Positions 3,127-20,863 are shown, numbered from the stretch's first letter. The stretch: 32,000 bases of DNA from Candidatus Nanoarchaeia archaeon (GCA_028279745.1 JANQNC010000001.1:870001-902000), one strand, 5' to 3'. Numbers and translations are program-made. Notes: a model not told the origin generated them from the letters alone.

Positions 3127-3774
3127 ATGATAAGCATAATTAGAACTATCTGGTTAAGATTACTAAACAACTTATTCAAAAAGAAAAAAGAGGTAAAGAT
3201 AGGACTATACGGGCCTCCAAACGCAGGAAAAACAACATTAGCAAATAAGATATGTGGAGACTGGCTGGGAGAAGAGATGGGAACTGCTTCAGGTGTAGCA
3301 CACGAAACAAGAGAGATCCAAATAAGAGAAGAAGTAACAATAAACAAAGGAGACAGATCATTAACATTTAACTTGGTGGACACACCAGGGATAGCAACAA
3401 AGATAGATTATGAAGAATTTCTAAAAGAAGGAATCCCTGAGGATGAAGCAAAACAAAGAGCGAAAGAAGCAACTAAAGGAGTAATAGATTCAATCAAATG
3501 GTTAGATGACATGGACGCAGTTGTAGTTGTTTTAGATTCAACAACGGACCCTTACAGTCAGGTAAACGTAACAATTCTAGGAAACTTAGAAGCAAGGGAT
3601 GTTCCTGTATTGCTTGTAGGAAATAAAGTTGACACAGACCAAGCAGATATCAAAAAGATGAGACAAGCATTCCCACAATATGATATAGTTGGAATAAGTG
3701 CATTACAAGGGGATAATATAGAAGACTTTTACGAAGCACTATTTACAATAACATCAAATCAAGAAAAAAATTAG
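3127..3774 (+). CDS. small P-loop GTPase (TRAFAC class)
   Basis: The GTPase motifs are G1 GPPNAGKTT, G3 DTPG, G4 GNKVD and G5 SAL. A hydrophobic/basic N-terminal segment precedes the P-loop. A Zn-ribbon gene lies immediately downstream. Confidence 0.8.
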   Translation: MISIIRTIWLRLLNNLFKKKKEVKIGLYGPPNAGKTTLANKICGDWLGEEMGTASGVAHETREIQIREEVTINKGDRSLTFNLVDTPGIATKIDYEEFLKEGIPEDEAKQRAKEATKGVIDSIKWLDDMDAVVVVLDSTTDPYSQVNVTILGNLEARDVPVLLVGNKVDTDQADIKKMRQAFPQYDIVGISALQGDNIEDFYEALFTITSNQEKN

Positions 3775-3793
3775 TTGAAAAAAGAGGTGAAAT

Positions 3794-4243
3794 ATGCCAC
3801 ACGAATGTGTAAGATGTGGAGAAGTCTATCCAAACGACTCTTCAAAAATAATAGAAGGTTGTGATTGTGGTAGTAAACTATTCTTTTATGTTAAACAAGA
3901 AGTAGCTGATAAACTGAAGCATGAGTCGGAAAGATTATCTGAAGAGGATAGAAAGCAGATAGAGAAAGATATCTATGAACTGATAGAAGAGACTGATGAA
4001 AAAACAGAAGAAGATCCAGTTAAGGAAAAAATAAAAAAATCAGTTAAAAAATCAGACAAAGGGGTGGTTGTCGTGGATATAGAATCAATAAAAATAATAG
4101 AGCCTGGTAAATATGAGATAGATTTGGCAGGATTATTCAAGAAAAAACCTCCAGTCTATGGTGTGGAGGATGGAAAGTATGTTGTGGATTTAAACACAGC
4201 ATTTGAAATGGCTAAAAAAGAAAAAGAAGAAAAGAAAGAATAA
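3794..4243 (+). CDS. Zn-ribbon protein with an acidic/lysine-rich linker
   Basis: The N-terminal CxxC...CxC ribbon (CVRCGEVY...CDCGSKLFFYV) is followed by a charged low-complexity region. An SD-like gaggtg lies upstream. The gene follows the GTPase closely. Confidence 0.65.
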   Translation: MPHECVRCGEVYPNDSSKIIEGCDCGSKLFFYVKQEVADKLKHESERLSEEDRKQIEKDIYELIEETDEKTEEDPVKEKIKKSVKKSDKGVVVVDIESIKIIEPGKYEIDLAGLFKKKPPVYGVEDGKYVVDLNTAFEMAKKEKEEKKE

Positions 4244-5120: not shown

Positions 5121-6143
5121 ATGGCTAAAATAGTAGGAATAGACCAAGCACTAAACGATATTACAGTAGATGTAAAAAGTTCATTCTTAAGAAAGTTAGG
5201 CATTCAAAAAGGAGATAGAAAGACAATAAACGATGCGGAATTGGAGAAAATTCTCCCAGTCATAGAATCTTTACAGACTAGAGCAGGAGGAACTGTGAGA
5301 AATGTAATAAGGAATTTAGCTTCATTTGGAGAAGATACGGGCTTAATTGCGGCAATAGGAAATGATGCAAGAGGGAAAGAGTTTAGAGAGTCACTTAACG
5401 GAATAAAAGACTTAACAGTTCAATACCCTGGAAAAACAGGAGTGGTTATAGCATACCTTACTGAAGAAAAAGAAAGATCGTTCCAAACTTATTTGGGAGT
5501 GTCATCACAGCTATCAAAAACATCAATAGAAAAAAGAATAAAAGAAGGTGAGTTTGAAGATACAAAAGTATTAGTTATGTCTGGGTTTTTATTTGAAAAG
5601 ATAACTGCACCACTATATTCTATGGCGTGTTACGCCCTTGATTACGCAAACAAGAACGGGATTAAAGTTGCACTAAGTTTGGGTGCGATAGGATTTTTAG
5701 AAAGAAACTCAAAAAACATAATGCGAATCCTAAATAAATATGAAGTTGGGCTAGTATCATTGAATGAACAAGAGATAAACACTCTGACAGGAAAGAAAGA
5801 TTACAGGGATTCTGCAGTAAAAATAATGCCTTACTGTGATGTACTTACTATAACAAGAGGTCACAACGGGATATTTCTGAAAACAAAAGATGTTGAGACA
5901 GGAATAGGTTTAAGTGAAAAAGATAAAGTCGCAATAAAAAGTAAAAATGGTGCAGGTGATGCAGCATTCTCAACAGTAATCTATGAATATGCAAATTATC
6001 CTTTTAATGTGAGTATAGTGGGAAGAGCGGCAAACAAAATAGCGGGGAAAGTGATATGTTCAGATTCTTCAAGCATAGATAAAAAAATAGATTATTCCAA
6101 GATAAGGGATGAAGCCAAAAAAGAATTTTATGGTATAAAATGA
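5121..6143 (+). CDS. PfkB-family sugar/nucleoside kinase
   Basis: The N-terminal motif is GGTVRNVIRNLASFG and the C-terminal ATP motif is NGAGDAAFS. The SD gggagggtg lies upstream. Confidence 0.8.
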   Translation: MAKIVGIDQALNDITVDVKSSFLRKLGIQKGDRKTINDAELEKILPVIESLQTRAGGTVRNVIRNLASFGEDTGLIAAIGNDARGKEFRESLNGIKDLTVQYPGKTGVVIAYLTEEKERSFQTYLGVSSQLSKTSIEKRIKEGEFEDTKVLVMSGFLFEKITAPLYSMACYALDYANKNGIKVALSLGAIGFLERNSKNIMRILNKYEVGLVSLNEQEINTLTGKKDYRDSAVKIMPYCDVLTITRGHNGIFLKTKDVETGIGLSEKDKVAIKSKNGAGDAAFSTVIYEYANYPFNVSIVGRAANKIAGKVICSDSSSIDKKIDYSKIRDEAKKEFYGIK

Positions 6144-7189
6144 AAGCGATAAAATGGAACGCATTGTATAAAATAGTGCTAGAACTAAACAGAAGAGTAG
6201 ATGATTTTTCAGTTTATGAAAATTTAGCAAAAAATGTTCTTCCAACTGTGCTGCTTCTTAATAAGACGCATCTAACACTTTTTGATGAGAATGGAAGCGC
6301 ATCAAAAGAGTATCTTCATGGGTTTACTAAGGCAAATATGAAACTTTTAGGTGAAAGAGGAATTGTTGAGGAGACAAAAAGAGATCTACTAAAAGAGGGA
6401 ACGGTAGTAATAGTGAATGATACGCAGAAAGATAAACGAGCTGATAGAGACATAGCAAGAAAACTAGATGTTGGTTCATACGCAAACATAATATTTAGAG
6501 CATACGAAGATGAAACCCCTTCAGGATATTTGCATCTGTGTAAGTCAATGAAGGCAATAAAAAAAGGAGAAGTGCACAGGTTTACAAGAGAGGATATACC
6601 TTTTTTGGGTTCTGTGGGGGGGCTAGTTGCAATTTCGTTAAGGAATTTTGGTCTTTATGAGAAACTAAACTATGAAGCATTAACACATGGGTTAACAAAA
6701 TTGCCAAACATGCGATCTTTTTACAGGACACTTGATCAAAAATTGAGAGAGGTACAAGAAACTAAAGAAAACTTTTCAGTTGTGATGTCTGATATAGATA
6801 ATTTCAAGAGGGCAGTTAAGAAATACCAACATTTGGCTGGAAGTGAGATAATTAAAGAGCTAGCACGTCTTCTTAGAGAAAATATAAAAGATGAAGACTA
6901 TGTTTCAAACTATGCGGGAGATGAGTTTATATTCCTGCTTCCAAAAACAAAAAAAGAAGCAGCAGCAGTTCTAACCGATAGATTGAGGGAGGTTATTTCT
7001 CAGCATACTTTTTATCCAAAACATCCTAGAACCAGAAAAAAAGAAGAGTACAGAATGACCTGTTGTTTTGGGATAGCTGAATCAACACCCTCAATCAGCA
7101 GGGAAGAGATAATTAGGAGAGCAGATTATGCTTTAAATAAAGCAAAAGAAGAGAAAGGGAAAAACGCTTCGTTGGTTTATAGGAAATAA
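6140..7189 (+). CDS. GAF-like sensor plus degenerate GGDEF-domain protein (AGDEF)
   Basis: GGDEF-fold landmarks are present (LTKLPNMRSFY, SDIDNFK, YAGDEFIFLLP), but several conserved substrate-binding positions are substituted. The start overlaps the PfkB stop (ATGA at 6140-6143). Confidence 0.75.
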   Translation: MKAIKWNALYKIVLELNRRVDDFSVYENLAKNVLPTVLLLNKTHLTLFDENGSASKEYLHGFTKANMKLLGERGIVEETKRDLLKEGTVVIVNDTQKDKRADRDIARKLDVGSYANIIFRAYEDETPSGYLHLCKSMKAIKKGEVHRFTREDIPFLGSVGGLVAISLRNFGLYEKLNYEALTHGLTKLPNMRSFYRTLDQKLREVQETKENFSVVMSDIDNFKRAVKKYQHLAGSEIIKELARLLRENIKDEDYVSNYAGDEFIFLLPKTKKEAAAVLTDRLREVISQHTFYPKHPRTRKKEEYRMTCCFGIAESTPSISREEIIRRADYALNKAKEEKGKNASLVYRK

Positions 7190-7308
7190 AATGGGAGCTG
7201 TAAAAGTACGTGAAGAATTTAAGTCACTATCTGGGTTGCAGAACTCTGCTTAACGAAGCAAAAATAACAAAAAGATATAAACAAACTTTACAAAAATAAT
7301 AAAAGAAA

Positions 7309-8784
7309 ATGAACAAGGAACTGTTTAAACATATTGATGTTGAAGCCTGGAAAAAAATACAGGATAAATTCTCAAAATCTATCGGTTTGCCAGTAATAAC
7401 TATCGATGAAAAAGGGAATGAACTGATAACATCGGAGTTTCCATTCTTTTGTCAACTTATAAAGTCAAGAATAGGCGAAAAATGTCTTAAATGCAGAGAA
7501 CAGTATTTTGAAAGATTGAAGAAGCAGGAAAATAAGATATTGGTTTATTATTGTCATGCAGGACTTCTGAATATAATGGTGCCGATCCATGTAAATGGAA
7601 AACAGATGGGTGCAGTAGTCTGTGAAGGTGCATTGAACACAGACAAAAATATAGCAAAATGCAGAAGATTGTCTAAGGAAACAAGGATACATACTCTTGA
7701 GCTTTTGGATGAGTTAAAGAGTATGAGGTTGCGTAGGAATAAAGATATAGAAAAGTATGCGACACTGTTGTTTTTACTTTCACAAACAATACCTGAAGTA
7801 GTACATGAAAAACATGAAGTAGAAAAGAAAGCAAATGAGCTTCAGATACTAAATAGTATGAGTGGGATATTAAATTCTTCGCTTGAGATGGATAAGATCA
7901 TGGATGAAGTTATCAAGTTCTTATGTGAGATGCAGATGGTGGATGGTTGTTCTATCATATTATTAAACAAAAACGAAAGATATGGCAATGAGATAGAACA
8001 GAAAATATTGTACCCTTTGGAGAGGAGGATAATACAACAGATAAAGAAGACAAAAGAGACAATAACTGTTAAGGATTTCCAATCAGAACCTGAGTTTGAG
8101 GATTTGCCAAAAGTACATTACAGCGCGATGATATCAATCCCTTTGATATCTAAAGGGGAACTGCAAGGAGCTTTGAATATCTATCCGAAGCCAGGTGAAG
8201 AGATAACTGAGAATGATTACAAATTCTTTTCAATCATAGCAGATCAGATAACGATGGCGATAATAAACGCACAACAGTATGAACTAATCAGATTAATGGC
8301 AATAACTGATAAATTGACAGGGTTATATAACAGAAGGCATTTCATGAAAATATTAGATAATGAAGTAGAGAGAGTGAAGAGGACAGAGAAGTCGATTTCT
8401 ATTGCGTTGATAGACTTAGATAACTTTACAAACTACAACAATACCCACGGGCATCCAGCAGGAGACAGACTATTACAAAAAATATCAGAAATATTCAGAA
8501 AGAATGTGCGTACTATCGATACTGTTGGGAGATATGGTGGAGAAGAGTTCATAGTTATTTTACCTGAAGCAGACATAAATCAAGCAGGAGAGATATCAGA
8601 AAGACTAAGAAGATTTGTTGAGATAGAAGATTTTGAAGGCCAACACGCAACAATAAGCATGGGTGTAGCAACATTCAGAGGGAATGTCCCAGACAAAGAA
8701 CAGATGATACAAAAAGCAGACGAACTTCTTTACAGAGCAAAAGATTCAGGAAAAAATAAAGTAGTTTCAGAAGAGATACAATGA
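7309..8784 (+). CDS. PocR-GAF-GGDEF diguanylate cyclase
   Basis: The N-terminal region is a Cys-containing PocR-like sensor (GLPVITIDEKGN...FC...CLKC...YYCHAGLLNIMVPI) and the central region is GAF-like. The C-terminal domain has LTGLYNRRHF, DLDNFTNYNNTHGHPAGD, RYGGEEFIVILP and an RTID I-site five residues upstream of GGEEF. Confidence 0.88.
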   Translation: MNKELFKHIDVEAWKKIQDKFSKSIGLPVITIDEKGNELITSEFPFFCQLIKSRIGEKCLKCREQYFERLKKQENKILVYYCHAGLLNIMVPIHVNGKQMGAVVCEGALNTDKNIAKCRRLSKETRIHTLELLDELKSMRLRRNKDIEKYATLLFLLSQTIPEVVHEKHEVEKKANELQILNSMSGILNSSLEMDKIMDEVIKFLCEMQMVDGCSIILLNKNERYGNEIEQKILYPLERRIIQQIKKTKETITVKDFQSEPEFEDLPKVHYSAMISIPLISKGELQGALNIYPKPGEEITENDYKFFSIIADQITMAIINAQQYELIRLMAITDKLTGLYNRRHFMKILDNEVERVKRTEKSISIALIDLDNFTNYNNTHGHPAGDRLLQKISEIFRKNVRTIDTVGRYGGEEFIVILPEADINQAGEISERLRRFVEIEDFEGQHATISMGVATFRGNVPDKEQMIQKADELLYRAKDSGKNKVVSEEIQ

Positions 8785-9996
8785 TTATTTGCCGCTGATA
8801 ATTTCTACAACATCACCATCTTTTAACAAGTGTTCTTTACCGACAGTCATTTTTGTTTTTACATCTATTGCTCTTATGAAATTATCTCCGAAATCTGAGT
8901 GAAGCCTGTAAGCAAAATCCAGTGCGGTTGAGTTGGGTGGAAGCAAAAAACAGTCGGGGAGAGTGTTTCCATGCTGATCTTCTAATTTATTCACTCCTCC
9001 AGGGAATATTGCTATGTACTTCAGTAATTTTTGAACAGAATCATCTAGAACTTGTTGAACGCCAGTAGATCCGAACTTTTTTAGAATGTTATCTTTAATG
9101 AACTCTAAAGCTTTAGTCTGTTTTTCATTTAAAGAGTCTTGTTTTAACATCTCGAAACTGTCTTCACCAGGAGTGTACTTGATCAATTCAGCTTTAGCAG
9201 CTTCTCTTAGGGCCAATTCAGATTCTGCAGAACATGCAATAAGCATATGGTCAGGAAATTCATTTTGTAATCGAGTGAAGTTGTTGGTTGCATTTTGAAC
9301 ATCAATCTTATTACAAGCGATAATCATTGGCTTAGTTATCTGTCTTAATTGTTTGGCAATATCTTTTAGCTGATCATCAGTCCACTTCTCAGGAATAATA
9401 TCTTTAAGATTTTTAGTAACGTCTTTAATCATATCCTCATCCACCTTTAGACCTGAAAGTTGTTTAGCTAAAGCTTTAGCAACATCCATCTTTTCTTGCT
9501 GAACCTGTTTAGCAAACTTTTCCCAACCTTTCTTAAGAATGCCATAATACCACATGTCAAGCTCAATCTCTAAGAATTTTATGTCATCCGCAGGGTCGTA
9601 CTTTCCTGGTCCGATCGGTTCTCCTTTTTCGTTAGTTGAACCTGAAACGTCTATAACATGAATTAAAACATCAGCCTGTCTTAGATCATCTAAGAATTGG
9701 TTACCCATGCCTTTACCTTCGTGTGCTCCTGGAACAAGGCCTGCAACATCAATCATCTCAACAGGAACAAAACGCTTATGATTAATGCAAAAACCTTCTC
9801 TTGGATTACATTGTTTATTGAAGAATTTATCAGCACAATCTACTTTAATATATCCAACACCTGAATTTGGCTTAATAGTTGCGAAAGGATAGTTAGCTAT
9901 CTCTACTTCTGCTAATGTAGATGCTTTGAAAAAAGTGCTTTTTCCAACATTTGCCTTTCCTACTACTCCTACGATCATTTTAGTTTCAGTTTTCAA
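8785..9996 (-). CDS. Obg-like GTPase/ATPase of the YchF/OLA1 (Ygr210-like) type with a C-terminal TGS domain
   Basis: Motifs seen are GVVGKANVGKSTFF, DVAGLVPGAHEGKGMGNQFLDDLRQADVLIHVID, NKID and a TGS-like end (DGDVVEIISGK). The start could instead be Met7 (nt 9978). Confidence 0.85.
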   Translation of the reverse strand: MKTETKMIVGVVGKANVGKSTFFKASTLAEVEIANYPFATIKPNSGVGYIKVDCADKFFNKQCNPREGFCINHKRFVPVEMIDVAGLVPGAHEGKGMGNQFLDDLRQADVLIHVIDVSGSTNEKGEPIGPGKYDPADDIKFLEIELDMWYYGILKKGWEKFAKQVQQEKMDVAKALAKQLSGLKVDEDMIKDVTKNLKDIIPEKWTDDQLKDIAKQLRQITKPMIIACNKIDVQNATNNFTRLQNEFPDHMLIACSAESELALREAAKAELIKYTPGEDSFEMLKQDSLNEKQTKALEFIKDNILKKFGSTGVQQVLDDSVQKLLKYIAIFPGGVNKLEDQHGNTLPDCFLLPPNSTALDFAYRLHSDFGDNFIRAIDVKTKMTVGKEHLLKDGDVVEIISGK

Positions 9997-11418: not shown

Positions 11419-11491
11419 GCCCCCGTAGCATAGTAGCTATTGCGTTTGACTTGTAATCAAAAGGTCGCGAGTGCAAATCTCGCCGGGGGCT
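11419..11491 (+). tRNA. tRNA-Thr (anticodon UGU), CCA not encoded
   Basis: Hand fold: a perfect 7-bp acceptor stem (gcccccg/cgggggc), a D arm, a 5-bp anticodon stem (tttga/tcaaa), the loop c-t-TGT-a-a, a 5-nt variable loop and a 5-bp T stem (gcgag/ctcgc). It is 73 nt long with canonical numbering throughout. Confidence 0.88.
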
Positions 11492-11495
11492 TTCT
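11481..11495 (+). repeat. attL-like direct repeat (3' end of tRNA-Thr plus 5 nt of trailer)
   Basis: The sequence cgccgggggctttct is identical to 15522-15536. Confidence 0.8.
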
Positions 11496-11524
11496 GTATT
11501 TTTACTCAGTGAAAAGGGCTTTTT

Positions 11525-12346
11525 TCACAGATTAAATTTAGAATTCTTTAAAACTATCTCAACTATATCAGAATAAAAAGAATAAAGATTGGGTCCTGAT
11601 ATTGGTGCTTCTCCTGGATGAGCGCTATGATTTCTCATCATAAAACAATGTCTTAATCTAGCATGTTGATTAAGATCTATATATCCCAAATATTCTAGGA
11701 TTAATAAGAGATCTGTGTCAAAGATTTCTCTTATTTCAGATAATGAAGATATTTCATATTTCTTATTAAACTTCTTAAATCTTCCAATTGTTTTTGACTT
11801 CATCTCAAGAACTGCTTTGTTGAATTTATCAAAACCTTCTTTCGCTATTTTGTTGTGTATCCTGTTTATTGTCGCACACCATCCTAGAATGATTGCTGCC
11901 CTTAAGCACCCTGATTGAGCACACTTAGCTGCTTCATTAAGGTATTCTTTTTCATCATTCTCAATATCATCAATAAAAGGATTGATGTTTAATCCTGATG
12001 AGATGCTTATATCGCTAGTCTCTATAATTTGTATGAGTTCTGACAGATATCCTTTACTAATCTCTTCAAGTAAAGAGACATATGTTGCTTTCCGCGTGGC
12101 TTTTTTTGAATATGCCAAGAGATTAGAAAAATACTCAGAATACTTACTCAACAAGTCTTTATCTAAATTAGTTCTATTAAGTAAGATTTTTAAATCATCA
12201 AACCAATCTCTGCATATTTTTACTACTTCCTCTTTAAGGTCGCCTCTGTTCACAATAGCAGACTGGTACTTTACCATCTTACCAAGTGTCTTTTTTATCT
12301 CTTTGTGATGTTCTTGTAGCTTGTTAAGGATTTCTTCTTTAGTCAT
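11525..12346 (-). CDS. HEPN-domain protein (Rx4H motif), putative RNase effector
   Basis: The C-terminal helical domain (EAAKCAQSGCLRAAIILGWCATINRIH ... RLRHCFMMRNHSAHPGE) carries R-N-H-S-A-H, which matches the HEPN Rx4-6H signature. The N-terminal half is helical and uncharacterised. Confidence 0.65.
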   Translation of the reverse strand: MTKEEILNKLQEHHKEIKKTLGKMVKYQSAIVNRGDLKEEVVKICRDWFDDLKILLNRTNLDKDLLSKYSEYFSNLLAYSKKATRKATYVSLLEEISKGYLSELIQIIETSDISISSGLNINPFIDDIENDEKEYLNEAAKCAQSGCLRAAIILGWCATINRIHNKIAKEGFDKFNKAVLEMKSKTIGRFKKFNKKYEISSLSEIREIFDTDLLLILEYLGYIDLNQHARLRHCFMMRNHSAHPGEAPISGPNLYSFYSDIVEIVLKNSKFNL

Positions 12347-12954
12347 TCTTGAATCAAGTCTCTTATTATTTCAGCCATTTTTACGTACCCTTGTCCACTA
12401 AGTTCAACAGCTCCTGCTTCATTTATTTTTTTCTCGGTTATTGCCCCTTTAAAGAATTTATGCTGGTTTTTTAGACTAGTTGTAAAGTTGCTATCGAATA
12501 GTCCTTCTTCCCTGCAGGTTTCTCTAACTTCAATGTAATCTGCTTTGAATTGTCCAGATGATAATGCATTTTCAAGGAGAATCATAAATACTTTCTGTAC
12601 TTGTGCTTTAGCCATCTGATCGCTATTTATTTTGTATATTGGCAGAATAGGTTCATGATCCAACATAAATAATTTTTCCAAGTCCTTTTCTGAAAGACCA
12701 TTTTTTCTAAGCATAACCAAAACGTTTCCTGGCAACTTGTACCCTTGACTCATACTTTGAGTAACAGCGTCTTCATTAGCAACCTCTTCTTGTTCTTGTC
12801 CTTTTTCTACAGGCAAATTGAAGTCTATATTTCCAAATGCAAGACCAAATAGCATTTCAAAACACTTTTCCTGAACATTTTCAGGGCTCTTACTAACTAT
12901 ATTGTTGATTTCATCAACTTCTTCTTGTACTTTTTTCCAATCTTTTTTGTCCAT
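12343..12954 (-). CDS. hypothetical protein, upstream partner of the HEPN gene
   Basis: It is a 203-aa ORF with an SD (ggaggat) 6-7 nt upstream. Its stop overlaps the HEPN start (ATGA at 12343-12346). I recognised no motif, and it has no MNT-type GSx(n)DxD motif. Confidence 0.6.
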   Translation of the reverse strand: MDKKDWKKVQEEVDEINNIVSKSPENVQEKCFEMLFGLAFGNIDFNLPVEKGQEQEEVANEDAVTQSMSQGYKLPGNVLVMLRKNGLSEKDLEKLFMLDHEPILPIYKINSDQMAKAQVQKVFMILLENALSSGQFKADYIEVRETCREEGLFDSNFTTSLKNQHKFFKGAITEKKINEAGAVELSGQGYVKMAEIIRDLIQE

Positions 12955-13118
12955 TTTGTAATCCTCCGATAAGTGATTTTAATTGGGTTTTCACTTATAC
13001 TTATAAATGTTTCGTCGGATAAATCACTTTTTCTCAAAAGTAAGAGGTATATTTGTCACTTAATGGATATGAATTTAATATAAGTGTATAAGAACATCAT
13101 AGAGGGTAAACTTGAAAA

Positions 13119-14345
13119 TTAATCACTTCTTGACATAAGTGAGCGGTAAACGCCCTCTATCAAATCTCTGCTCTTTTCCACATTTACTTTTTCCATTGTT
13201 TCGAACATTTTGAGTTGTTGTTCTTGCATTTGTTCTAGTTTTTGTTGCATTTCTTGCATTCTTTGAGCGTAGAGTTTTTCTCTCATTTTGCTTTCTTCTA
13301 GTTGTCCGTTTAGTTGGGACATGTTATGTTGGTATATTTTGCTTTTGGATCTTCTTCCATCAATTGCTAGAAAGTTTACATATTTATCTATCTCATCACT
13401 TGATGGTTTGTGTCCTAGTCTTTTGTTTACTTCGTCTGTTGTCCAGTCTTTTTTCAGCAAGTCACAAGCCATACTGCTTCTTAGATCTTTCCATGTGACA
13501 TTTTCTCCGTTTGGAAGACATTTTGATTTGGTGATTCTTACTGCTCTTTTTAGAATCTGTTTTGCACTAGAATAGCAGAATTTGAATAATTCTTCTTGAG
13601 GTTCTAGATCTTGCAAGTAAACTGTTAATAATCTTACAGTTTCGTCATAGTTTGTTATTTCGCTTCTTGGTGTTCTTGATCTCTTAAGAATTTCTCTTCT
13701 AAGGTTTACTCTGTATTCTTCTTGTTTTGTTTCAGGATTAACAATCTTTGTAAAATCACACTTTCTAAGTCTTAATAACGAATTTATGTTTTCTCCTATG
13801 TCAAAAGCCAACCAAACCAATAATTTTCCATCAAATCTACCGATAACATCAATTATTGTTCTTACTGTTTTTTCTTCTATAAATCTTACTTCATCACTTT
13901 TCTTTGTTGGTGCAAATTCCATCACGTCTTGCACTATTTCGTGTTTTCCTGCGAGCTTGAATAATTTACTTCTAAATATCTTGTTATAATATGATGTTAA
14001 GTCTTTGAATGGTCTGCCTTGTTTGTTAAGGATTTTTCCATCTTCTAATGCATCATAGACTCGTTTAAAATCTTCTTTTGTAATGTGTTTTAACGGCTTA
14101 TTCTTGAACCACTTATTGATATTGGTGAACTTAATAAGATAGCCATATAAGGTTTTATAGCACCCGTCGTCAAGTTCAGGAAGCCCATTCTGTCTCTTTA
14201 ACTTATACTCCTGTTTTTCAAAGAATTCTCTATACAAATCCCTATTTTCCTGACAAATATAAGGATCTCTAAGAAACTTTCGTACTCTTTTCCTATACCT
14301 TTTTTCATAAGTGCTTTTCCATGCCATCGTCGGAGATGAGTCCAT
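13119..14345 (-). CDS. tyrosine recombinase / integrase (divergent)
   Basis: The C-terminal catalytic region is TWKDLRSSMACDLL ... KRLGHKPSSDEIDKYVNF, which fits the box II pattern xLRxxxA ... LGH ... Y. A box I-like segment (SLLRLRKCDF) lies upstream. A glutamine-rich coiled-coil tail follows the catalytic region. Confidence 0.7.
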   Translation of the reverse strand: MDSSPTMAWKSTYEKRYRKRVRKFLRDPYICQENRDLYREFFEKQEYKLKRQNGLPELDDGCYKTLYGYLIKFTNINKWFKNKPLKHITKEDFKRVYDALEDGKILNKQGRPFKDLTSYYNKIFRSKLFKLAGKHEIVQDVMEFAPTKKSDEVRFIEEKTVRTIIDVIGRFDGKLLVWLAFDIGENINSLLRLRKCDFTKIVNPETKQEEYRVNLRREILKRSRTPRSEITNYDETVRLLTVYLQDLEPQEELFKFCYSSAKQILKRAVRITKSKCLPNGENVTWKDLRSSMACDLLKKDWTTDEVNKRLGHKPSSDEIDKYVNFLAIDGRRSKSKIYQHNMSQLNGQLEESKMREKLYAQRMQEMQQKLEQMQEQQLKMFETMEKVNVEKSRDLIEGVYRSLMSRSD

Positions 14346-14373
14346 AACTCATATATAAAGAGGCTCGATTAAT

Positions 14374-14505
14374 TTAATACTCATAATACCTCTTAACCTT
14401 TCTTTTCTTCTTATCCAATTCACACAAATAGTCGTAGATCTTATCAAAATCCCAACCCCACTTAATACGATCTTTCATGATTTTTAGCAATTCAGTCCTT
14501 TTCAT
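14374..14505 (-). CDS. small 43-codon ORF upstream of the integrase (possible excisionase-like or DNA-binding protein)
   Basis: I translated it by hand: MKRTELLKIMKDRIKWGWDFDKIYDYLCELDKKKRKVKRYYEY. It is co-oriented with the integrase and ends 28 nt before the integrase start. There is no homology evidence. Confidence 0.3.
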   Translation of the reverse strand: MKRTELLKIMKDRIKWGWDFDKIYDYLCELDKKKRKVKRYYEY

Positions 14506-14752
14506 AATACTCATTTACAACATAGGAGGTATATAAATCATCCAAAAAGATAAAATGTTTAAAGATGATAAATTTATAAAGAGGGAAAAAGTCCAAAAGG
14601 AAAAGAAAACTTCTGTCATTTAATTCTAAAAGATTCTTGTAAATAATTCTCCTCCCACTTTATTTATAAATAAAAGCCATTTATAAAGGCAGATTAAAAA
14701 GCAGTGGTTTGTTTGCATTAATTTTATATATGCATTTAGATTTCTTGCTATT

Positions 14753-15169
14753 ATGATAATTACAATTGGAGGCAGTATGGTCTTTGCTAAAGAGCAAGTA
14801 GAAGCTAAGAAAGTTCTAGAAAATAAAGGGCATGAAGTACTATTAACAGATAATATCGAGGAATATGTTAATTCTCCAAGTATTAAACAAAGTTATGAAG
14901 AAGAGCTAAGAATTTCTTTAGAAAATGATATAATGATGAGTTTCTTCAATAAATTAGCTAAAAGTGATGCATTTCTTGTTTGTAATTATGATAAAAAAGG
15001 GATAAAAGGATATCTAGGTACTTCAGTTTTGATGGAAATGGGCTTAGCATACTATCTAAACAAAAAGATTTTCTTGTTATATGATATAGATAGAACACAA
15101 GGTTACGCATTAGAAGTTGATATAATTAAACCAACAGTAATTAATGAAGACTATTCTAAAATCAAATAA
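14753..15169 (+). CDS. nucleoside 2-deoxyribosyltransferase-like protein
   Basis: It begins with a small Rossmann-like strand (MIITIGGSM). The motif DAFLVCN...GYLGTSVLMEMGLAYYLNKKIFLL resembles the NDT-family D..GT..E.G.A motif that contains the catalytic Glu. Confidence 0.5.
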   Translation: MIITIGGSMVFAKEQVEAKKVLENKGHEVLLTDNIEEYVNSPSIKQSYEEELRISLENDIMMSFFNKLAKSDAFLVCNYDKKGIKGYLGTSVLMEMGLAYYLNKKIFLLYDIDRTQGYALEVDIIKPTVINEDYSKIK

Positions 15170-15240
15170 ACGGACGATTTTTTGTTTCTTAAATAAGGTT
15201 ACCCTTTTTTAGTTTTATATATCAGGGGACGATTATTTGG

Positions 15241-15265
15241 TGCTATCAAAGAGTTTGTTTAGGGC
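15241..15265 (+). repeat. 25-nt direct repeat, copy 1, in the non-coding arm of the element
   Basis: The sequence tgctatcaaagagtttgtttagggc matches 15378-15402 at 21 of 25 positions. Confidence 0.6.
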
Positions 15266-15377
15266 TATGATTTCAACCTTACAAGAAGATGATTCTTAAG
15301 CCACAAAGTTTATACCCCCTGAATCCAACCTGACAATCAACCTTACAAAATTCAAGAAAACTACATCAAGAAAAAGA

Positions 15378-15402
15378 TGCTATCAAGAATTCTGTTTAGG
15401 GC
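15378..15402 (+). repeat. 25-nt direct repeat, copy 2
   Basis: The sequence tgctatcaagaattctgtttagggc matches 15241-15265 at 21 of 25 positions. Confidence 0.6.
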
Positions 15403-15521
15403 AAAAATTTAAGAGGATTTTTGCTCAATTCATGCAGTACAACGTTTAAGACGTGCAGATTCAAGAGGAGTTTCGGGGGTGAGTAAAAACCCTCTGTTTA
15501 TGAGTAAAAATTATCTCGAGC

Positions 15522-15536
15522 CGCCGGGGGCTTTCT
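15522..15536 (+). repeat. attR-like direct repeat
   Basis: The sequence cgccgggggctttct is identical to 11481-11495. The partial tRNA-like atctcg lies just upstream. Confidence 0.8.
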
Positions 15537-15540
15537 AAAC

Positions 15541-15915
15541 TTATTTCTTACAACAATCTTTACAAATTCCTTTTACTTCTAGTTGGAAGCTTGTGATTGT
15601 TCCAGGAATTTTGTCTTTTAGAAAATCAATGTTATCAATTGTAAAGTGAATAATCTTTCCACTCTTTTCACATTCAAAATGACAATGACTTTTCTTACCC
15701 TTAGAATAAATTGTTTTTCTATTGCAAAGGTAGGTAAATAATTCACCCTTTTCTTTAGCTTCTCTTAAAAATCTGTAAATTGTAGCCATTCCAATACTTT
15801 TTTCTTTTTGTTTTACTCTTTCAAAAAGTTCTTCTGCATTGAAAAAAGAGTCTATTTTATCTAATTCAAATTTTATTGCTTCTTTTTGTTTTGTAGCTCT
15901 ATTCTGTCTTCCCAT
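15541..15915 (-). CDS. zur: Fur-family metalloregulator (probably Zur)
   Basis: It has a winged-helix motif (MATIYRFL), metal sites HCHFECEKSG and CKDCC, and is 124 aa long. It is divergent from the znuA-like operon. Confidence 0.8.
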   Translation of the reverse strand: MGRQNRATKQKEAIKFELDKIDSFFNAEELFERVKQKEKSIGMATIYRFLREAKEKGELFTYLCNRKTIYSKGKKSHCHFECEKSGKIIHFTIDNIDFLKDKIPGTITSFQLEVKGICKDCCKK

Positions 15916-15924
15916 CTTCTTATT

Positions 15925-15943
15925 GATAATGAGAATCAGTAAT
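15925..15943. promoter_or_regulatory. Fur-box-like operator in the zur/znuA divergent promoter
   Basis: The sequence gataatgagaatcagtaat matches the classical 19-bp Fur box GATAATGATAATCATTATC at 15 of 19 positions. Two atttaaat TATA-like boxes follow it. Confidence 0.55.
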
Positions 15944-16010
15944 GTATTTAAATACTCTTCCTTTTTTGAGTCAATAAGGATTATTTAAATAATAATCAGG
16001 AGGGGTCTAA

Positions 16011-17267
16011 ATGAAAAAAACAATAATTATGGTTGTACTTCTAGCAGCTTTAATTCTAGCTGGATGTAGTCAAACAACAAATACACAAATAGAAGATAAA
16101 GAAATGAAAATAAGTGTGGTTACAACATTATTCCCACTATATGAATTTGCAAGAGAAGTCGGTGGAGACAAAGTAGATGTTAATTTATTACTTCCTCCTG
16201 GATCAGAACCTCATTCTTTTGAACCAAAACCAAGTGATATTAAGATAATAGCGGAAGCTGATGCATTTATCTACATTGGTGAAATGATGGAGCCTTGGGC
16301 ACATGATATTTTAGAAGGTTCAAATAATGAAGAATTACAAGTTATTGATGCAAGCAGTTTAGTAACTTTACTTGAAAGCGATCATCACGATGAACATCAT
16401 GACGATCATGAAGATGAAGAGCATGATGAAGAACACGAAGAAGATGATGAACATCACGACGAACACACTGTAGAAGAAGAATGTTTAGAACATGAAGGAA
16501 CATGGGTAGAAGAACATGAAGAATGTGAAGGAATCAGTGAAGAAGTTTGTGATGAGTTAGGTGGAGAATTTAATGAATGTGGAAGTGCATGTAGAAATGA
16601 TCCAAGTACTGCAATCTGCACTTTACAATGTGTGTTAGTATGTTCTTTTGAAGAGCATGAAGAGGAACATCATGACGATCATGAAGATGGAGAGCATGAA
16701 GATGAACATGAAGAAGATGATCATCATCATGGAGAACACGACCCGCATATTTGGTTAGATCTAAGCAATGATCAAGAAATTGTGGATGAAATTGTAAGAG
16801 TATTCAGTTTACTTGACAGTGAAAACTCAAAAGTTTACGAAGAAAATGCAGAAGCATATAAAGCTAAGTTAGCAGCACTTGATCAGAGATATAAAACAGA
16901 ATTAAGTGAATGTGAACAAGACGAGTTTATTGTAGGCGGACATAACTTCTTTTCTTACATAGAAGAAAGATATGAAATTGAAGGAATCTCAGCAATTGAG
17001 AATCTAGAGCCAAATACAGAACCAACTCCAAAAAGAATCAAAGAAATAACAGATATTGCTGAAGAACACGGTATAAAGTATATATTAACCGAAGTTTTAA
17101 TAAGTAAGCAAATGGCAGAAGCAATAGCGAGTGAGGCAGGAGCAGAAGTTTTAACATTTAATCCAGCTCCAAACTTGCCAAAAGAAGACTTTGACAAAGG
17201 AGTTACTTTCATTTCTGTTATGGAAGATAACCTTGAAACTTTGAAGAAGGCTTTGGAGTGCGAATAG
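16011..17267 (+). CDS. znuA: ABC metal-binding lipoprotein, ZnuA/TroA (cluster 9) family, with an expanded His/Asp/Glu loop and a Cys-rich insert
   Basis: It has a signal peptide with the lipobox LAGC and metal ligand motifs GSEPHSFEP and HDPHIWLD. Two His-rich acidic stretches flank an 8-Cys segment. Confidence 0.85.
   Translation: MKKTIIMVVLLAALILAGCSQTTNTQIEDKEMKISVVTTLFPLYEFAREVGGDKVDVNLLLPPGSEPHSFEPKPSDIKIIAEADAFIYIGEMMEPWAHDILEGSNNEELQVIDASSLVTLLESDHHDEHHDDHEDEEHDEEHEEDDEHHDEHTVEEECLEHEGTWVEEHEECEGISEEVCDELGGEFNECGSACRNDPSTAICTLQCVLVCSFEEHEEEHHDDHEDGEHEDEHEEDDHHHGEHDPHIWLDLSNDQEIVDEIVRVFSLLDSENSKVYEENAEAYKAKLAALDQRYKTELSECEQDEFIVGGHNFFSYIEERYEIEGISAIENLEPNTEPTPKRIKEITDIAEEHGIKYILTEVLISKQMAEAIASEAGAEVLTFNPAPNLPKEDFDKGVTFISVMEDNLETLKKALECE
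16392..16456 (+). repeat. His-rich-loop coding repeat, copy 1
   Basis: The sequence gaacatcatgacgatcatgaagatg... recurs at 16665-16726 with about 58 of 62 identities plus one 3-nt indel. Confidence 0.75.
16665..16726 (+). repeat. His-rich-loop coding repeat, copy 2
   Basis: See copy 1. The first 25 nt are identical between the copies. Confidence 0.75.
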
Positions 17268-18059
17268 ATGGGAAACCTTGTTGAGATAAAAAATATAAGT
17301 TTTAATTTTGGAAGTACAGAGGTACTTTCAAAAATTAATTTTTCTATTAGTAAAGGGGACTTTGTAGGTCTAATAGGACCTAATGGATCAGGCAAGACAA
17401 CACTAATAAAATTACTGTTAGGGCTTTACAAACCACAAAAAGGATCAATTAAGATTAATGGAAAAGATATTTCAGAATTTTCTGACTGGGGAAAGATTGG
17501 ATATGTTCCTCAAAAAGCAACAAACTTCTCAGATACATTTCCTGCAAGTGTTCAAGAGATAGTTTTAACAGGAAGTTTATCAAACAAAAGATTTCTTAAA
17601 AAGTATACTTCAAAAGATTATGATTTGGCACTCGAAGCTTTAAAAAAAGTGGAGATGCAAGACTTTCTAAACAGAAGAATAGGTGAACTTTCTGGAGGGC
17701 AACAACAAAGAGTCTTTATTGCAAGAGCTCTGATTACAAATCCAGAAATATTAATACTTGACGAACCAACAACGGGAGTTGATCAAGAAACTCAAACAAA
17801 ATTTTATGATCTGCTACATACTCTAAATAAAGAGGGGATCAGCATCATTATTGTTTCACATGATCTCCAAAGAGTAACTAAATATGTTACAAAAGTGGCT
17901 AGTTTGAATAAAAAACTGGACTTTTATGGGTCTCACAAAGAATTCTGTAGTCACCCAGACCATGATAATGAACATCATTGTTTAATTATTAAAAAAGGAC
18001 ACGAATGTAAAGAACCAAAGTGTGACGAACCTGCATGTATGAAGGAGAAAAAATGTTAG
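17268..18059 (+). CDS. znuC: ABC transporter ATPase (ZnuC-like) with a C-terminal Cys/His-rich tail
   Basis: It has Walker A GPNGSGKTT, the signature LSGGQQQR, Walker B ILILDEPT and the H-loop VSHD. A 37-aa tail contains 6 Cys and 5 His. Confidence 0.88.
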   Translation: MGNLVEIKNISFNFGSTEVLSKINFSISKGDFVGLIGPNGSGKTTLIKLLLGLYKPQKGSIKINGKDISEFSDWGKIGYVPQKATNFSDTFPASVQEIVLTGSLSNKRFLKKYTSKDYDLALEALKKVEMQDFLNRRIGELSGGQQQRVFIARALITNPEILILDEPTTGVDQETQTKFYDLLHTLNKEGISIIIVSHDLQRVTKYVTKVASLNKKLDFYGSHKEFCSHPDHDNEHHCLIIKKGHECKEPKCDEPACMKEKKC

Positions 18060-18871
18060 AAATATTAGAATATGCATTTATGCAAAAAGCATTTATCACA
18101 GGCATTGTAATTGCAATAGCTTGTTCTCTTTTAGGAGTATTTTTAGTTCTTAGGAGATATGCGCTTATTGGTGATGGGATTGCACATATTTCTTTTGGGG
18201 GGGTTGCAACAGGATTACTTTTCAATATAACTCCTTTTTTTGGAGCTTTGATTTTCTCACTAATTGGATCATTAGGAATTCTTAACATAAAAGCGAAAAC
18301 AAATCTTTACGGAGATTCTGCAATTGGAATTGTGAGCCATTCAAGTTTAGGCATAGGGATATTTATTCTATCGGTAGCAAATGGGTTTAATATAGATATA
18401 CTTAGTTTTCTATTTGGGAGTATTTTGGCAATTAAGCAAAGTGAGATGGTGTTATCAATTGTTTTGGCAGTTATAGTAATTGCAGTAATCTATTTTTTTT
18501 ACAATGAACTATTCTCAATAACTTTTGATGAAAACACATCAAAAACATTCGGAATAAAAACAGGATTTTTAAACACTCTTTTAATAGTTCTAACTGCACT
18601 GACTATAGTTGGATCAATGAGAGTTGTAGGATTAATGTTAGCATCATCCTTGATAATCTTACCTGCTGCATCCGCACTGCAGCTTAGACTTAGTTTTAAG
18701 AAAACCCTATTTGCATCAGCAATTATAGCTGTGTTAAGTGTGATATTAGGGCTTTATTTAGCCTACATGTTTGATTTTGCAGTGTCGGGAACAATAGTGC
18801 TGCTAAATACAATAATGTTTATATTGACACAAATTTACAAAAAAGTAAAGAGTATGTTAATCAAAAAATAG
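18053..18871 (+). CDS. znuB: ABC-3 family metal permease (ZnuB-like)
   Basis: It is polytopic and hydrophobic, with a LRRYALIGDGIAH motif. The ATG at 18053 is preceded by aaggaga and overlaps the znuC stop. The ORF-track start at 18035 is less likely. Confidence 0.85.
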   Translation: MLEILEYAFMQKAFITGIVIAIACSLLGVFLVLRRYALIGDGIAHISFGGVATGLLFNITPFFGALIFSLIGSLGILNIKAKTNLYGDSAIGIVSHSSLGIGIFILSVANGFNIDILSFLFGSILAIKQSEMVLSIVLAVIVIAVIYFFYNELFSITFDENTSKTFGIKTGFLNTLLIVLTALTIVGSMRVVGLMLASSLIILPAASALQLRLSFKKTLFASAIIAVLSVILGLYLAYMFDFAVSGTIVLLNTIMFILTQIYKKVKSMLIKK

Positions 18872-18900
18872 GGTCGTAGGACTGGACTGGAGTTTCCAGG

Positions 18901-18917
18901 CTCGCAGAGGGCTTTCT
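18901..18917 (+). repeat. degenerate third copy of the tRNA-Thr 3' end / att sequence
   Basis: The sequence ctcgcagagggctttct matches tRNA/trailer 11479-11495 (ctcgccgggggctttct) at 15 of 17 positions. It has the same orientation and lies 30 nt after the znuB stop. Confidence 0.55.
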
Positions 18918-19793: not shown

Positions 19794-20243
19794 ATGGAAG
19801 GATACGAACAACTAAAGCAAGAATATGACTTGCCTGAGTATAACGAATTAGACAATGAATTCGAGATAAGTCTACTAGAAGATGCACCATTTCCATTAAG
19901 AAACATAAGAAGAAAAATAATGGAGAAAGTGGATTTCTATGCAAGACTATTGGAAGAACAACTACAGCCAGAAGCACAACTTCCATTAATACATGAATGT
20001 AAATATTTCACAGATGAAGACAAATCAAGAATGTTCAAATTCTACATGAAGCTAATGTTAATAGTGCGAGCTTCAGCACAGCTAGGGATAGAGGAAGATG
20101 ACCAAAAAACAGCAAAGTTCATAACAAAAACACTAGCTGAATGGAAAGAGATGAAACCAGAACTATTACAATACTTAAGAAAAGTAAGAGATGCATGGAA
20201 AGAAGACATAAGCACAACAGAAACACTGGGGTATTTAGGATGA
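19794..20243 (+). CDS. hypothetical protein, translationally coupled to adk
   Basis: It is a 149-aa acidic helical ORF. Its stop overlaps the adk start (ATGA at 20240-20243). Confidence 0.5.
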   Translation: MEGYEQLKQEYDLPEYNELDNEFEISLLEDAPFPLRNIRRKIMEKVDFYARLLEEQLQPEAQLPLIHECKYFTDEDKSRMFKFYMKLMLIVRASAQLGIEEDDQKTAKFITKTLAEWKEMKPELLQYLRKVRDAWKEDISTTETLGYLG

Positions 20244-20863
20244 AACTATTGATCGTAGGACCGCAAGCAGCAGGAAAAGGAACACAAGCAAAACTAATCT
20301 CTGAAAAATATGATATTCCACACATTTCTACAGGTGACATGTTTAGAAGTGCAGCAGAACAAGGGACTGAAGCAGGACTAAAGGCTAAGGAAGAGTATTG
20401 GGGACAAGGAAAACTAGTTCCAGACGAAGTAACAAACCAACTATTATATGATAGAATACAACAAGACGACTGCAAAAACGGATTTGTACTGGATGGATTC
20501 CCAAGAAACATCCCCCAGGCAGAATACTTAGATGGAATAACTTCAATAGACAAAGTAATATCTTTAGAATTATCAGACGAAGAAGCAATCAAAAGAATAT
20601 CGGGAAGAAGAACCTGTAAAGGATGTAGTGAGATATACAACATAACCTCAAACCCGCCAAAACAAGAAAACATATGTGACAAATGTGATAATGAGCTATA
20701 CCAAAGAGACGACGATAAACCAGACGCAGTTAAATTAAGACTACAAACATACCACGATCAAACAGAACCGATCCTAGAACATTACAAAGACAAAGTTGTG
20801 AAAGTAGATGCTTCAAAAAGTATTGAAGAAGTGAGTGAAGCGGTATTTAAAGAGCTAAACTGA
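20240..20863 (+). CDS. adk: adenylate kinase, long (bacterial-type) form with a Zn-binding lid
   Basis: It starts MKLLIVGPQAAGKGTQAKL (P-loop) and contains GFVLDGFPR, the lid cysteines CKGC...CDKC, and RDDD. The ORF-track start at 20141 is an upstream extension inside the previous gene. Confidence 0.9.
   Translation: MKLLIVGPQAAGKGTQAKLISEKYDIPHISTGDMFRSAAEQGTEAGLKAKEEYWGQGKLVPDEVTNQLLYDRIQQDDCKNGFVLDGFPRNIPQAEYLDGITSIDKVISLELSDEEAIKRISGRRTCKGCSEIYNITSNPPKQENICDKCDNELYQRDDDKPDAVKLRLQTYHDQTEPILEHYKDKVVKVDASKSIEEVSEAVFKELN

Follow-up and report, generated by a model that had tools for sequence, protein, structure and literature searches.

Genes at the locus

We analyzed a 32-kb stretch of DNA from Candidatus Nanoarchaeia archaeon (hereafter the window, along which all positions are counted unless a related locus is named), in which a gene for a PfkB-family kinase is followed by two genes whose products carry GGDEF domains, the hallmark of the diguanylate cyclases that make cyclic di-GMP (c-di-GMP). 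The first of these products, GGDEF2, is a 349-aa protein, and the second is a 491-aa protein, here called the cyclase, in which PocR and GAF sensor domains precede the GGDEF domain. A preliminary description of the sequence had listed these three genes, and the open reading frames (ORFs) and their Pfam matches placed each of them where that description had put it (Table 1). The overlap it had reported between the kinase and GGDEF2 genes was likewise borne out by the codon positions, with the ATG at 6140-6142 and the TGA at 6141-6143 sharing the tetranucleotide ATGA. Upstream of pfkB there are a TATA-like box and a GGAGGGTGA site. The cyclase gene is preceded by a gap of its own (119 nt), and the TATA-like box within it carries low weight because the guanine-plus-cytosine (GC) content of the genome is only 33%. 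A gene for an HD-superfamily hydrolase and, before it, genes for an ArvA/OapA-like small GTPase and an ArvC/OapC Zn-ribbon protein lie upstream of the kinase, and a YGR210-type GTPase is encoded downstream on the opposite strand.

Table 1. Positions of genes, domains, sites and other features. Rows naming L088, L090, L100 and L101 give positions in those related loci.
Feature	Position	Strand	Match or remark
ArvA/OapA-like small GTPase	3127-3774	+	Pfam MMR_HSR1 2e-14, Arf 3e-7; opens the conserved upstream block
ArvC/OapC Zn-ribbon protein	3794-4243	+	Pfam OapC 2.5e-25
HD-superfamily hydrolase, 267 aa	4247-5050	+	Pfam HD weak (1.5e-3); opens the accessory module; not of the HD-GYP type
PfkB-family kinase, 340 aa	5121-6143	+	Pfam PfkB 1.6e-21; translationally coupled to GGDEF2
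GGDEF2 (second GGDEF protein), 349 aa	6140-7189	+	Pfam GGDEF 4e-31; weak N-terminal GAF_2
TATA-like box GATATAAA	7274-7281	+	~31 nt upstream of the cyclase ATG
PocR-GAF-GGDEF cyclase, 491 aa	7309-8784	+	PocR 1.2e-28, GAF_2 1.2e-13, GGDEF 7.5e-43
Cyclase, PocR domain	7330-7791
Cyclase, GAF domain	7882-8262
Cyclase, GGDEF domain	8299-8760
Cyclase, PocR cysteines	7450-7623		Cys48, Cys59, Cys62, Cys82, Cys105
Cyclase, I-site RTID	8509-8520
Cyclase, A-site GGEEF	8536-8550
YGR210-type Obg-like GTPase with TGS domain	8785-9996	-	NCBIfam NF007171, 547 bits (cut-off 387)
Direct repeat CGCCGGGGGCTTTCT, first copy	11481-11495		3' end of tRNA-Thr
Tyrosine-integrase-like gene	13119-14345	-	PHROG integrase 6.8e-13
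Direct repeat CGCCGGGGGCTTTCT, second copy	15522-15536
Fur-ZnuA-ZnuC-ZnuB block	15541-18917
ZnuA, repeat blocks	16371-16748		87-nt and 21-nt units
Degenerate third repeat copy	18903-18917		13/15 identical
Adenylate kinase, longest ORF	20141-20863
Aminotransferase, N-terminal ORF, 88 aa	21351-21617
Aminotransferase, C-terminal ORF, 279 aa	21809-22648
Divergent sub-clade, L088	6678-11551
Divergent sub-clade, L100	7142-11566
Divergent sub-clade, L090	2195-11563
Divergent sub-clade, L101	263-8978

The cyclase and its family

The 491-aa protein carries the sequence to be expected of an active, product-inhibited diguanylate cyclase. Every motif quoted in the preliminary description (LTGLYNRRHF, DLDNF...GHPAGD, GGEEF and RTID) was found: KLTGLYNRRHF occupies residues 335-345, IDLDNFTNYNNTHGHPAGD residues 367-386 and the active-site (A-site) motif GGEEF residues 410-414, with Asp369 and Asp371 as the metal-binding residues. 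The putative inhibitory site (I-site), RTID, lies at residues 401-404, five residues before GGEEF and spaced as in PleD, and Asn341 and Asp350 correspond to the guanine contacts Asn335 and Asp344 of PleD. The A-site, metal-binding aspartates, guanine contacts and complete RxxD I-site of such an enzyme are all present. Family models agree, with 146.5 bits for the GGDEF domain against PF00990 (cut-off 23.8), 177 bits against TIGR00254 (cut-off 37.4), and 100.3 bits for the PocR domain at residues 8-161 against PF10114 (cut-off 23.9).

An AlphaFold2 (AF2) model computed with the family alignment as input had a predicted local distance difference test score (pLDDT) of 87.8 and arranged the chain as PocR (~1-140), a 45-residue helix (144-188), GAF, a 32-residue helix (301-332) and GGDEF. 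In Foldseek comparisons, the modeled GGDEF domain superposed on c-di-GMP-bound 3ign at 1.3 Å with a template modeling (TM) score of 0.91, and the best whole-chain matches were the phytochrome-activated cyclase 5llw (E 7e-25) and other sensor cyclases. The predicted layout is that of dimeric cyclases switched through a signaling helix. With the PleD/WspR-type enzymes (1w25, 3bre, 3ign) the protein shares the GGDEF fold at 35-42% identity, the GGEEF A-site, the DxD...F Mg/phosphate motif, the Asn and Asp guanine contacts, Lys478, and an RxxD motif five residues before GGEEF together with an ER(L)R helix; it differs from them in its input, PocR and GAF rather than receiver domains, and in its archaeal host. 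The Idiomarina phytochrome cyclase 5llw (PAS-GAF-PHY-GGDEF) resembles it in having N-terminal sensors that include GAF and a long signaling helix leading to GGDEF, a layout that implies a dimeric register-shift mechanism. Unlike 5llw, the 491-aa protein lacks a bilin-binding phytochrome module and has PocR in place of PAS and PHY, and the whole-chain TM-score between the two is only ~0.35 because their domain orientations differ.

We found at least 57 homologs with the same PocR-GAF-GGDEF architecture and 31-55% identity to the 491-aa protein, and all members whose source is named are labeled Candidatus Woesearchaeota or Nanoarchaeota. Residue conservation was counted in 54 full-length members, whose pairwise identity has a median of 37% and a minimum of 26%. 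All 54 have GGEEF, Asp369, Asp371 and Phe373, His382, Gly385 and Asp386, and the I-site Asp404; Asn341 and Lys478 are each kept in 53 members and the I-site Arg401 in 50. Such a pattern is as expected from purifying selection on catalysis and product binding. In the PocR domain, Cys48, Cys59 and Cys82 occur together in 36 of the 54 members, mostly with Cys105 as well, and the set is lost in the most divergent sub-clade; these cysteines are a possible metal- or redox-sensitive site.

Outside the family, the closest homologs are bacterial GAF-GGDEF proteins. A scan of representative genomes with a generic GRYGGEEF seed gave at least 79 bacterial loci and a single archaeal one (L005) among the matches listed. 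In a profile search with the PocR-GAF region, 11 of the best 150 matches were true family representatives of ~500 aa. The matches of this search were dominated by giant multi-GAF proteins, among them three of 2500-2900 aa (P0341, P0367 and P0397) that carry the full PocR-GAF profile at the N terminus, followed by many GAF-like stretches. In a neighbor-joining tree of the GGDEF domain only (200 bootstrap replicates), the point tree joined 57 archaeal members with P0061 and P0120 in a single clade, at a bootstrap of 56/200, and left the secondary GGDEF domains unplaced. The GGDEF domain is too short for dating or sourcing an acquisition.

We weighed the possibility that these are real archaeal GGDEF proteins whose product is not c-di-GMP, but 3',3'-cyclic GMP-AMP or cyclic di-AMP, as made by Hypr enzymes, or a linear dinucleotide, or which serve as modules that bind or hydrolyze nucleoside triphosphates. 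Several features would fit such a reading: the guanine-specificity position (Asp344 in PleD) is variously Lys, Glu, Asp or Thr across the family, the neighborhood showed no dedicated phosphodiesterase or receptor for c-di-GMP, this messenger has so far gone undetected in archaea, and GGDEF2 has AGDEF and no I-site. However, the window protein has Asn341 and Asp350, like GTP-specific enzymes, the family keeps the c-di-GMP-binding RxxD motif (Arg401 in 50/54, Asp404 in 54/54), and the Ser/Thr signature of Hypr enzymes occurs in only 3 of the 54 members. The position equivalent to PleD Asp344 varies in the bacterial homologs that we retrieved as well; it therefore allows no inference about the product of the family, and we dropped it as a predictor. 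We consider a different product unlikely, and the suggestion that the cyclase had been repurposed for another nucleotide is not favored for the 491-aa protein in view of its Asn341, Asp350 and intact I-site.

The accessory module

In the window and in three related loci, L086, L087 and L092, genes for the HD protein, the PfkB-like protein and GGDEF2 lie between arvC and the cyclase gene; the cyclases of these loci are 54%, 42% and 44% identical, respectively, to that of the window. A short contig, L085, has the order PfkB-GGDEF2-cyclase. None of the three genes has a counterpart in L002, L004, L005, L091 or L093-95, and across nine loci they have been gained or lost together. This distribution points to an accessory module that is confined to a sub-lineage, next to a cyclase that is broadly conserved. 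The "cassette" of the preliminary description stands in that the PfkB, GGDEF2 and cyclase genes adjoin; it had not separated these two layers and had overlooked the HD protein as a co-traveling partner.

The PfkB and GGDEF2 genes abut in L086 and are adjacent in L085, and in two genomes their products are joined. L087 encodes one 555-aa protein with a PfkB domain (38 bits, Pfam cut-off 25.8) ahead of a canonical GGDEF domain (127 bits, with RWGGEEF). L092 encodes one 786-aa protein that begins with a weakly PfkB-like part, continues with a GAF-like stretch and ends in GGDEF, an arrangement that corresponds to the PfkB protein and GGDEF2 of the window joined end to end. The four PfkB-like modules align collinearly and have in common the GG dipeptide, the Asn of NxxE and the catalytic-base motif GxGD. 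Fusion to GGDEF in two genomes implies that the PfkB-like and GGDEF parts work together, and we predict that the PfkB-like protein and GGDEF2 act as one unit.

The PfkB protein of the window matches PF00294 with 77.4 bits (cut-off 25.8) and has the motifs AGGTVRN, SLNEQE and NGAGDA. Its best NCBIfam match is the inosine/guanosine kinase family NF011655 (92 bits, cut-off 367; next family 49), and its best PDB matches are Escherichia coli Gsk (6vwo, 2e-15) and then adenosine kinases, with which it shares the GG, NxxE and GAGD motifs. Only its N-terminal 250 residues align with Gsk and, unlike Gsk, it is ~100 aa shorter and is coupled or fused to GGDEF. Orthology to Gsk was rejected on the NF011655 cut-off, and by sequence the protein most resembles the purine-nucleoside kinases without being orthologous to Gsk or to any other of them.

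GGDEF2 scores 108 bits against the Pfam GGDEF model and retains the Asp-x-Asp and DEF residues, but differs from canonical enzymes in having AGDEF, KDED in place of RxxD, QHLAGSE (QH..GS for GH..GD) and NMR for NRR; neither an intact A-site nor an intact I-site was found in its 349 residues. Only two close relatives turned up among 5.8e9 proteins, and both have the same variant motifs. Since they share AGDEF, the lack of RxxD and GS for GD, the variant form of GGDEF2 is conserved. The domain that had been labeled "degenerate" is therefore an AGDEF variant lacking the I-site rather than a product of random decay. Counterparts elsewhere carry GGEEI, GGDEM or GGEEF, the one in L086 having GGEEI and RESD. 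An AGDEF enzyme of Vibrio cholerae is reportedly active, and GGDEF2 may be catalytically active as well.

The HD protein belongs to a family with more than 2200 matches at 46-50% identity, which include Nanoarchaeota, Bathyarchaeia and Bipolaricaulota. The best PDB folds for its AF2 model (pLDDT 85.5) were HD-like domains of Ppx/GppA (E 3e-3), the HD-GYP protein PA4781 came out at only E 0.12, and there was no close solved structure. We considered the protein as the missing phosphodiesterase and rejected it: its sequence has no GYP motif or other HD-GYP features, and the family is a generic and widespread one.

The size of the HD family, which also occurs in organisms without these cyclases, would suit a reading in which the PfkB, HD and two GGDEF genes are mere neighbors and the PfkB and HD proteins are ordinary enzymes of nucleotide salvage. 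So would the complete set of kinase motifs in the window PfkB and the absence of all three accessory genes from many genomes that retain the main cyclase. Set against this are the union of PfkB-like and GGDEF parts in single polypeptides of two divergent genomes, the overlapping or abutting PfkB and GGDEF genes elsewhere, and the joint gain or loss of HD, PfkB and GGDEF2 over nine loci. Mere adjacency is, in our estimate, quite improbable.

Archaeal origin and conserved position of the cyclase gene

According to its protein database record, the cyclase is encoded on a contig of 1,301,350 bp. A Logan assembly of SRR20820740 has NucS-PyrB-PyrI-Ogg-GT4-GTPase-OapC-HD-PfkB-GGDEF-cyclase in the same order as the window. 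GC content is flat along the window, and codon usage correlates with that of the other window genes at r=0.93 for the cyclase, 0.92 for GGDEF2, 0.87 for HD and 0.76 for PfkB. Family matches to OapC, the Arf-like GTPase, Ogg2, the YGR210-type GTPase and TruD confirmed the archaeal context that had been read from the window, and PyrI adds to these archaeal-type genes; NucS lies upstream in L001, and L002 has deoxyhypusine synthase. No rRNA or ribosomal-protein marker was found within the window.

More than 10 other assemblies, obtained from different samples, have an orthologue of the cyclase (33-54% protein identity) at the same position. Its gene stands tail-to-tail with a YGR210-type GTPase gene in L002, L004, L005, L092, L093, L094 and L095, whose GTPases are 62-73% identical to that of the window, and downstream of GTPase-(OapB)-OapC in L002, L005, L086, L087, L091, L093, L094, L095 and L099. 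Genes farther upstream vary among loci, which leaves arvA(B)C - cyclase - YGR210 as the conserved core. In L005, the Woesearchaeota metagenome-assembled genome (MAG) YT2_768, ArvA and the YGR210-type GTPase are 64-68% identical to those of the window and gene order is collinear from the GTPase through PHP, orf189, orf149, Adk and TruD, with a cyclase only 33% identical. Judged by eye, the L092 cyclase seems to correspond to P0014, a protein that bears the label Woesearchaeota at NCBI.

A divergent sub-clade (L088, L090, L100 and L101; cyclase identity 32-38%) has a different, internally conserved context (stretches in Table 1). There, the cyclase follows a trio of genes for a 260-aa protein, a DHH-DHHA1 protein of ~370 aa and a 275-aa protein, and lies near glycogen-metabolism genes and a gene for a PKD-repeat protein longer than 1100 aa. 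The DHH-DHHA1 neighbor was considered as a phosphodiesterase for pGpG or cyclic dinucleotides and set aside, as it gave only weak matches to RecJ/GAN nucleases.

Since the cyclase gene stays at one locus even in relatives with only 33% identity, and its codon usage is native, it appears to be vertically inherited there, and any transfer from bacteria would be ancient. The preliminary description had offered horizontal acquisition as one reading; a GGDEF gene in a real archaeon stands, and a recent gain does not. The recurrent synteny and the native GC content and codon usage also bear out that the contig is archaeal (Woesearchaeota, DPANN) and the locus non-chimeric. That the GGDEF genes might be bacterial DNA, for example from the Candidate Phyla Radiation, mis-binned or mis-assembled into an archaeal contig is a worry raised in general about archaeal MAGs with GGDEF or HD-GYP ORFs (PMC5847659; bioRxiv 10.1101/2021.11.05.467447), and the nearest homologs outside the family are indeed bacterial GAF-GGDEF proteins. 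However, the genes lie inside a 1.3-Mb contig with archaeal-type genes on both flanks, the same junctions recur in the different samples noted above across 33-54% identity, and base composition and codon usage are native. Contamination is effectively refuted by this synteny.

An anti-virus defense system signaling with nucleotides, akin to CBASS or to the palm cyclase of type III CRISPR, is no less remote, for the sub-threshold matches of both GGDEF domains to the Cas10/Cmr2 palm domain reflect generic similarity between palm domains, and the integrated element 3 kb downstream is offset by a stable core-genome position outside any variable island, by the lack of an effector gene and by zero PADLOC matches for the cassette proteins, on which we rejected this candidate.

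The arvA(B)C neighborhood

The ArvA-like GTPase of the window shares 64-80% identity with the GTPases encoded ahead of OapB/OapC in L002, L005, L086, L087, L091 and L093-95, and it scores 30.5 bits against Arf (cut-off 22.3); the OapC match of the neighboring gene is 89.7 bits. OapA has been renamed ArvA, a vesiculating GTPase; the ArvABC system was characterized in Haloferax, and ArvA homologs were reported in DPANN, including Nanoarchaeota (PMC10927574). In L002, L005, L087, L091 and L093-95, an Arf-like GTPase gene is followed by genes of the OapB and OapC families in the order of the Haloferax volcanii operon, with arvB between arvA and arvC. Unlike in Haloferax, a diguanylate cyclase gene comes after arvC in Woesearchaeota, and no arvB was found between arvA and arvC in the window (3775-3793) or in its closest relative, L086 (592-673). 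A tie between the output of the cyclase and the ArvABC vesicle-forming system is speculative.

Other features of the window

An exact, GC-rich 15-nt direct repeat, CGCCGGGGGCTTTCT, occurs at the 3' end of the tRNA-Thr gene and again ~4 kb farther on. The two copies bracket two ORFs of unknown function, the integrase-like gene and a small ORF resembling nucleoside deoxyribosyltransferases, and in L002 and L005 the tRNA gene at the corresponding position carries no insertion. The segment at 11481-15536 looks like an integrated element with attL and attR sites. The Fur-ZnuA-ZnuC-ZnuB block that follows is absent from the relatives at this position and is bounded by the second copy of CGCCGGGGGCTTTCT and by a degenerate third one, and could represent a tandem island that entered the same tRNA site earlier. 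Within ZnuA, two blocks of imperfect coding repeats rich in His, Asp and Glu encode a long metal-binding loop, as known from some ZnuA proteins.

The gene for a class I/II aminotransferase is split into two ORFs that lie ~190 nt apart with no continuous frame, which points to a frameshifted gene, a pseudogene or an error in the sequence. In its longest form, the adenylate-kinase ORF shares ~100 nt with orf149, but family models match it only from residue 34 onward, and its true start is probably near 20240.

Discussion

We propose, with a probability of roughly 0.7, that the 491-aa protein works in the cytoplasm as a sensor diguanylate cyclase, that it is native to Woesearchaeota (DPANN) and belongs to a vertically inherited, lineage-wide family, and that it is accompanied here by a PfkB-GGDEF2 accessory unit. 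Dimerization of the cyclase would be mediated by the two long helices that link its domains (residues 144-188 and 301-332). A ligand, or a redox or metal cue, would be perceived by PocR, by GAF or by both, and would set the register of the two GGDEF domains, which, so paired, are predicted to condense two molecules of GTP into c-di-GMP. The product would then bind to the RxxD I-site and switch the enzyme off. In one sub-lineage, the accessory module would have been inserted between arvC and the cyclase gene. Its PfkB part is most likely a nucleoside- or sugar-binding module for dimerization or input, or a local supplier of GMP, and either role would link a second cyclase or nucleotide-binding output to the status of nucleotide salvage. 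DPANN organisms are expected to depend on salvage, which makes an input of nucleoside availability through PfkB and GGDEF2 plausible.

Several points weigh against this proposal. According to a 2023 review, no archaeon has yet been found to contain c-di-GMP (PMC10249747). A Pfam scan of the 34 ORFs of the window that are at least 100 aa long and were judged likely genes found no EAL, HD-GYP or PilZ gene, as the preliminary description had stated, and none was found in the neighboring loci examined; nor did Rfam models at their gathering thresholds find a c-di-GMP riboswitch in the window and three related loci. At the position of PleD Asp344 the family is variable (Lys 21, Glu 17, Asp 10, Thr 3, Val 1), and bootstrap support for its monophyly in the GGDEF-domain tree is weak. 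The Logan assembly perhaps derives from the reads that also gave the long contig and is then independent in method rather than in data. Finally, the link to ArvABC is one of gene order within a single order-level lineage.

The existence of archaeal GGDEF ORFs is already known. The literature regards GGDEF either as all but missing from archaea, as the preliminary description had it, or as a suspected contaminant of archaeal MAGs (PMC5847659; bioRxiv 10.1101/2021.11.05.467447; PMC10249747). Reviews and censuses still hold that c-di-GMP has gone undetected in archaea and that the GGDEF and HD-GYP ORFs of archaeal MAGs may be bacterial contaminants (PMC10249747; PMC5847659; bioRxiv 10.1101/2021.11.05.467447; PMC10086821). 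Braun et al. (2021) mentioned more than 300 archaeal BLAST matches, many from Asgard and DPANN genomes, without analysis, and Romling (2022) held that presence in archaeal contigs requires confirmation. Galperin and Chou voiced the same caution for HD-GYP and described a Methanocella ORF that joins PocR to GGDEF (bioRxiv 10.1101/2021.11.05.467447). This protein, RCIX2274 of Methanocella arvoryzae (REC-PAS-PocR-GGDEF-HD-GYP), is the one archaeal GGDEF protein that earlier censuses accepted and, by its described architecture only, resembles the cyclase in being archaeal and in joining PocR to GGDEF (bioRxiv 10.1101/2021.11.05.467447). RCIX2274 is one ORF in one methanogen and brings its own HD-GYP domain, whereas the cyclase studied here belongs to a whole DPANN family, has a GAF domain and no HD-GYP, and occupies a conserved locus. 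Several members of the family have already been named "diguanylate cyclase" by NCBI. What is new is that such archaeal ORFs appear to be genuine, vertically inherited and selected for catalysis and product binding, that they sit at a conserved locus beside arvABC, and that a PfkB-like protein is coupled to GGDEF; no description of a PfkB-GGDEF pairing was found in the literature searched. The enzyme mechanism is canonical, and the novelty lies in the archaeal host and the PfkB coupling.

A wider and much more tentative view, which we hold to be rather doubtful, is that c-di-GMP signaling is ancestral in Woesearchaeales, that the cyclase is wired to ArvABC as a machinery of vesicles and membrane remodeling, that a lineage-specific PfkB::GGDEF unit reports the state of nucleoside salvage to the same pool of messenger, and that receptors and turnover enzymes are unrelated to EAL, HD-GYP and PilZ. 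If true, the wiring to ArvABC would tie c-di-GMP to host contact or surface behavior.

The locus, placed on a megabase contig and conserved in position in many assemblies, argues that archaeal GGDEF genes are real and not bacterial contamination, and with a defined protein in hand the question of whether archaea use c-di-GMP becomes directly testable. It also offers two hypotheses for host-dependent archaea with small genomes: a link to vesicles through ArvABC, and a link to nucleoside salvage through the kinase-GGDEF pair. If bacterial-type receptors and phosphodiesterases are truly absent from these genomes, new classes of c-di-GMP effectors should exist in them.

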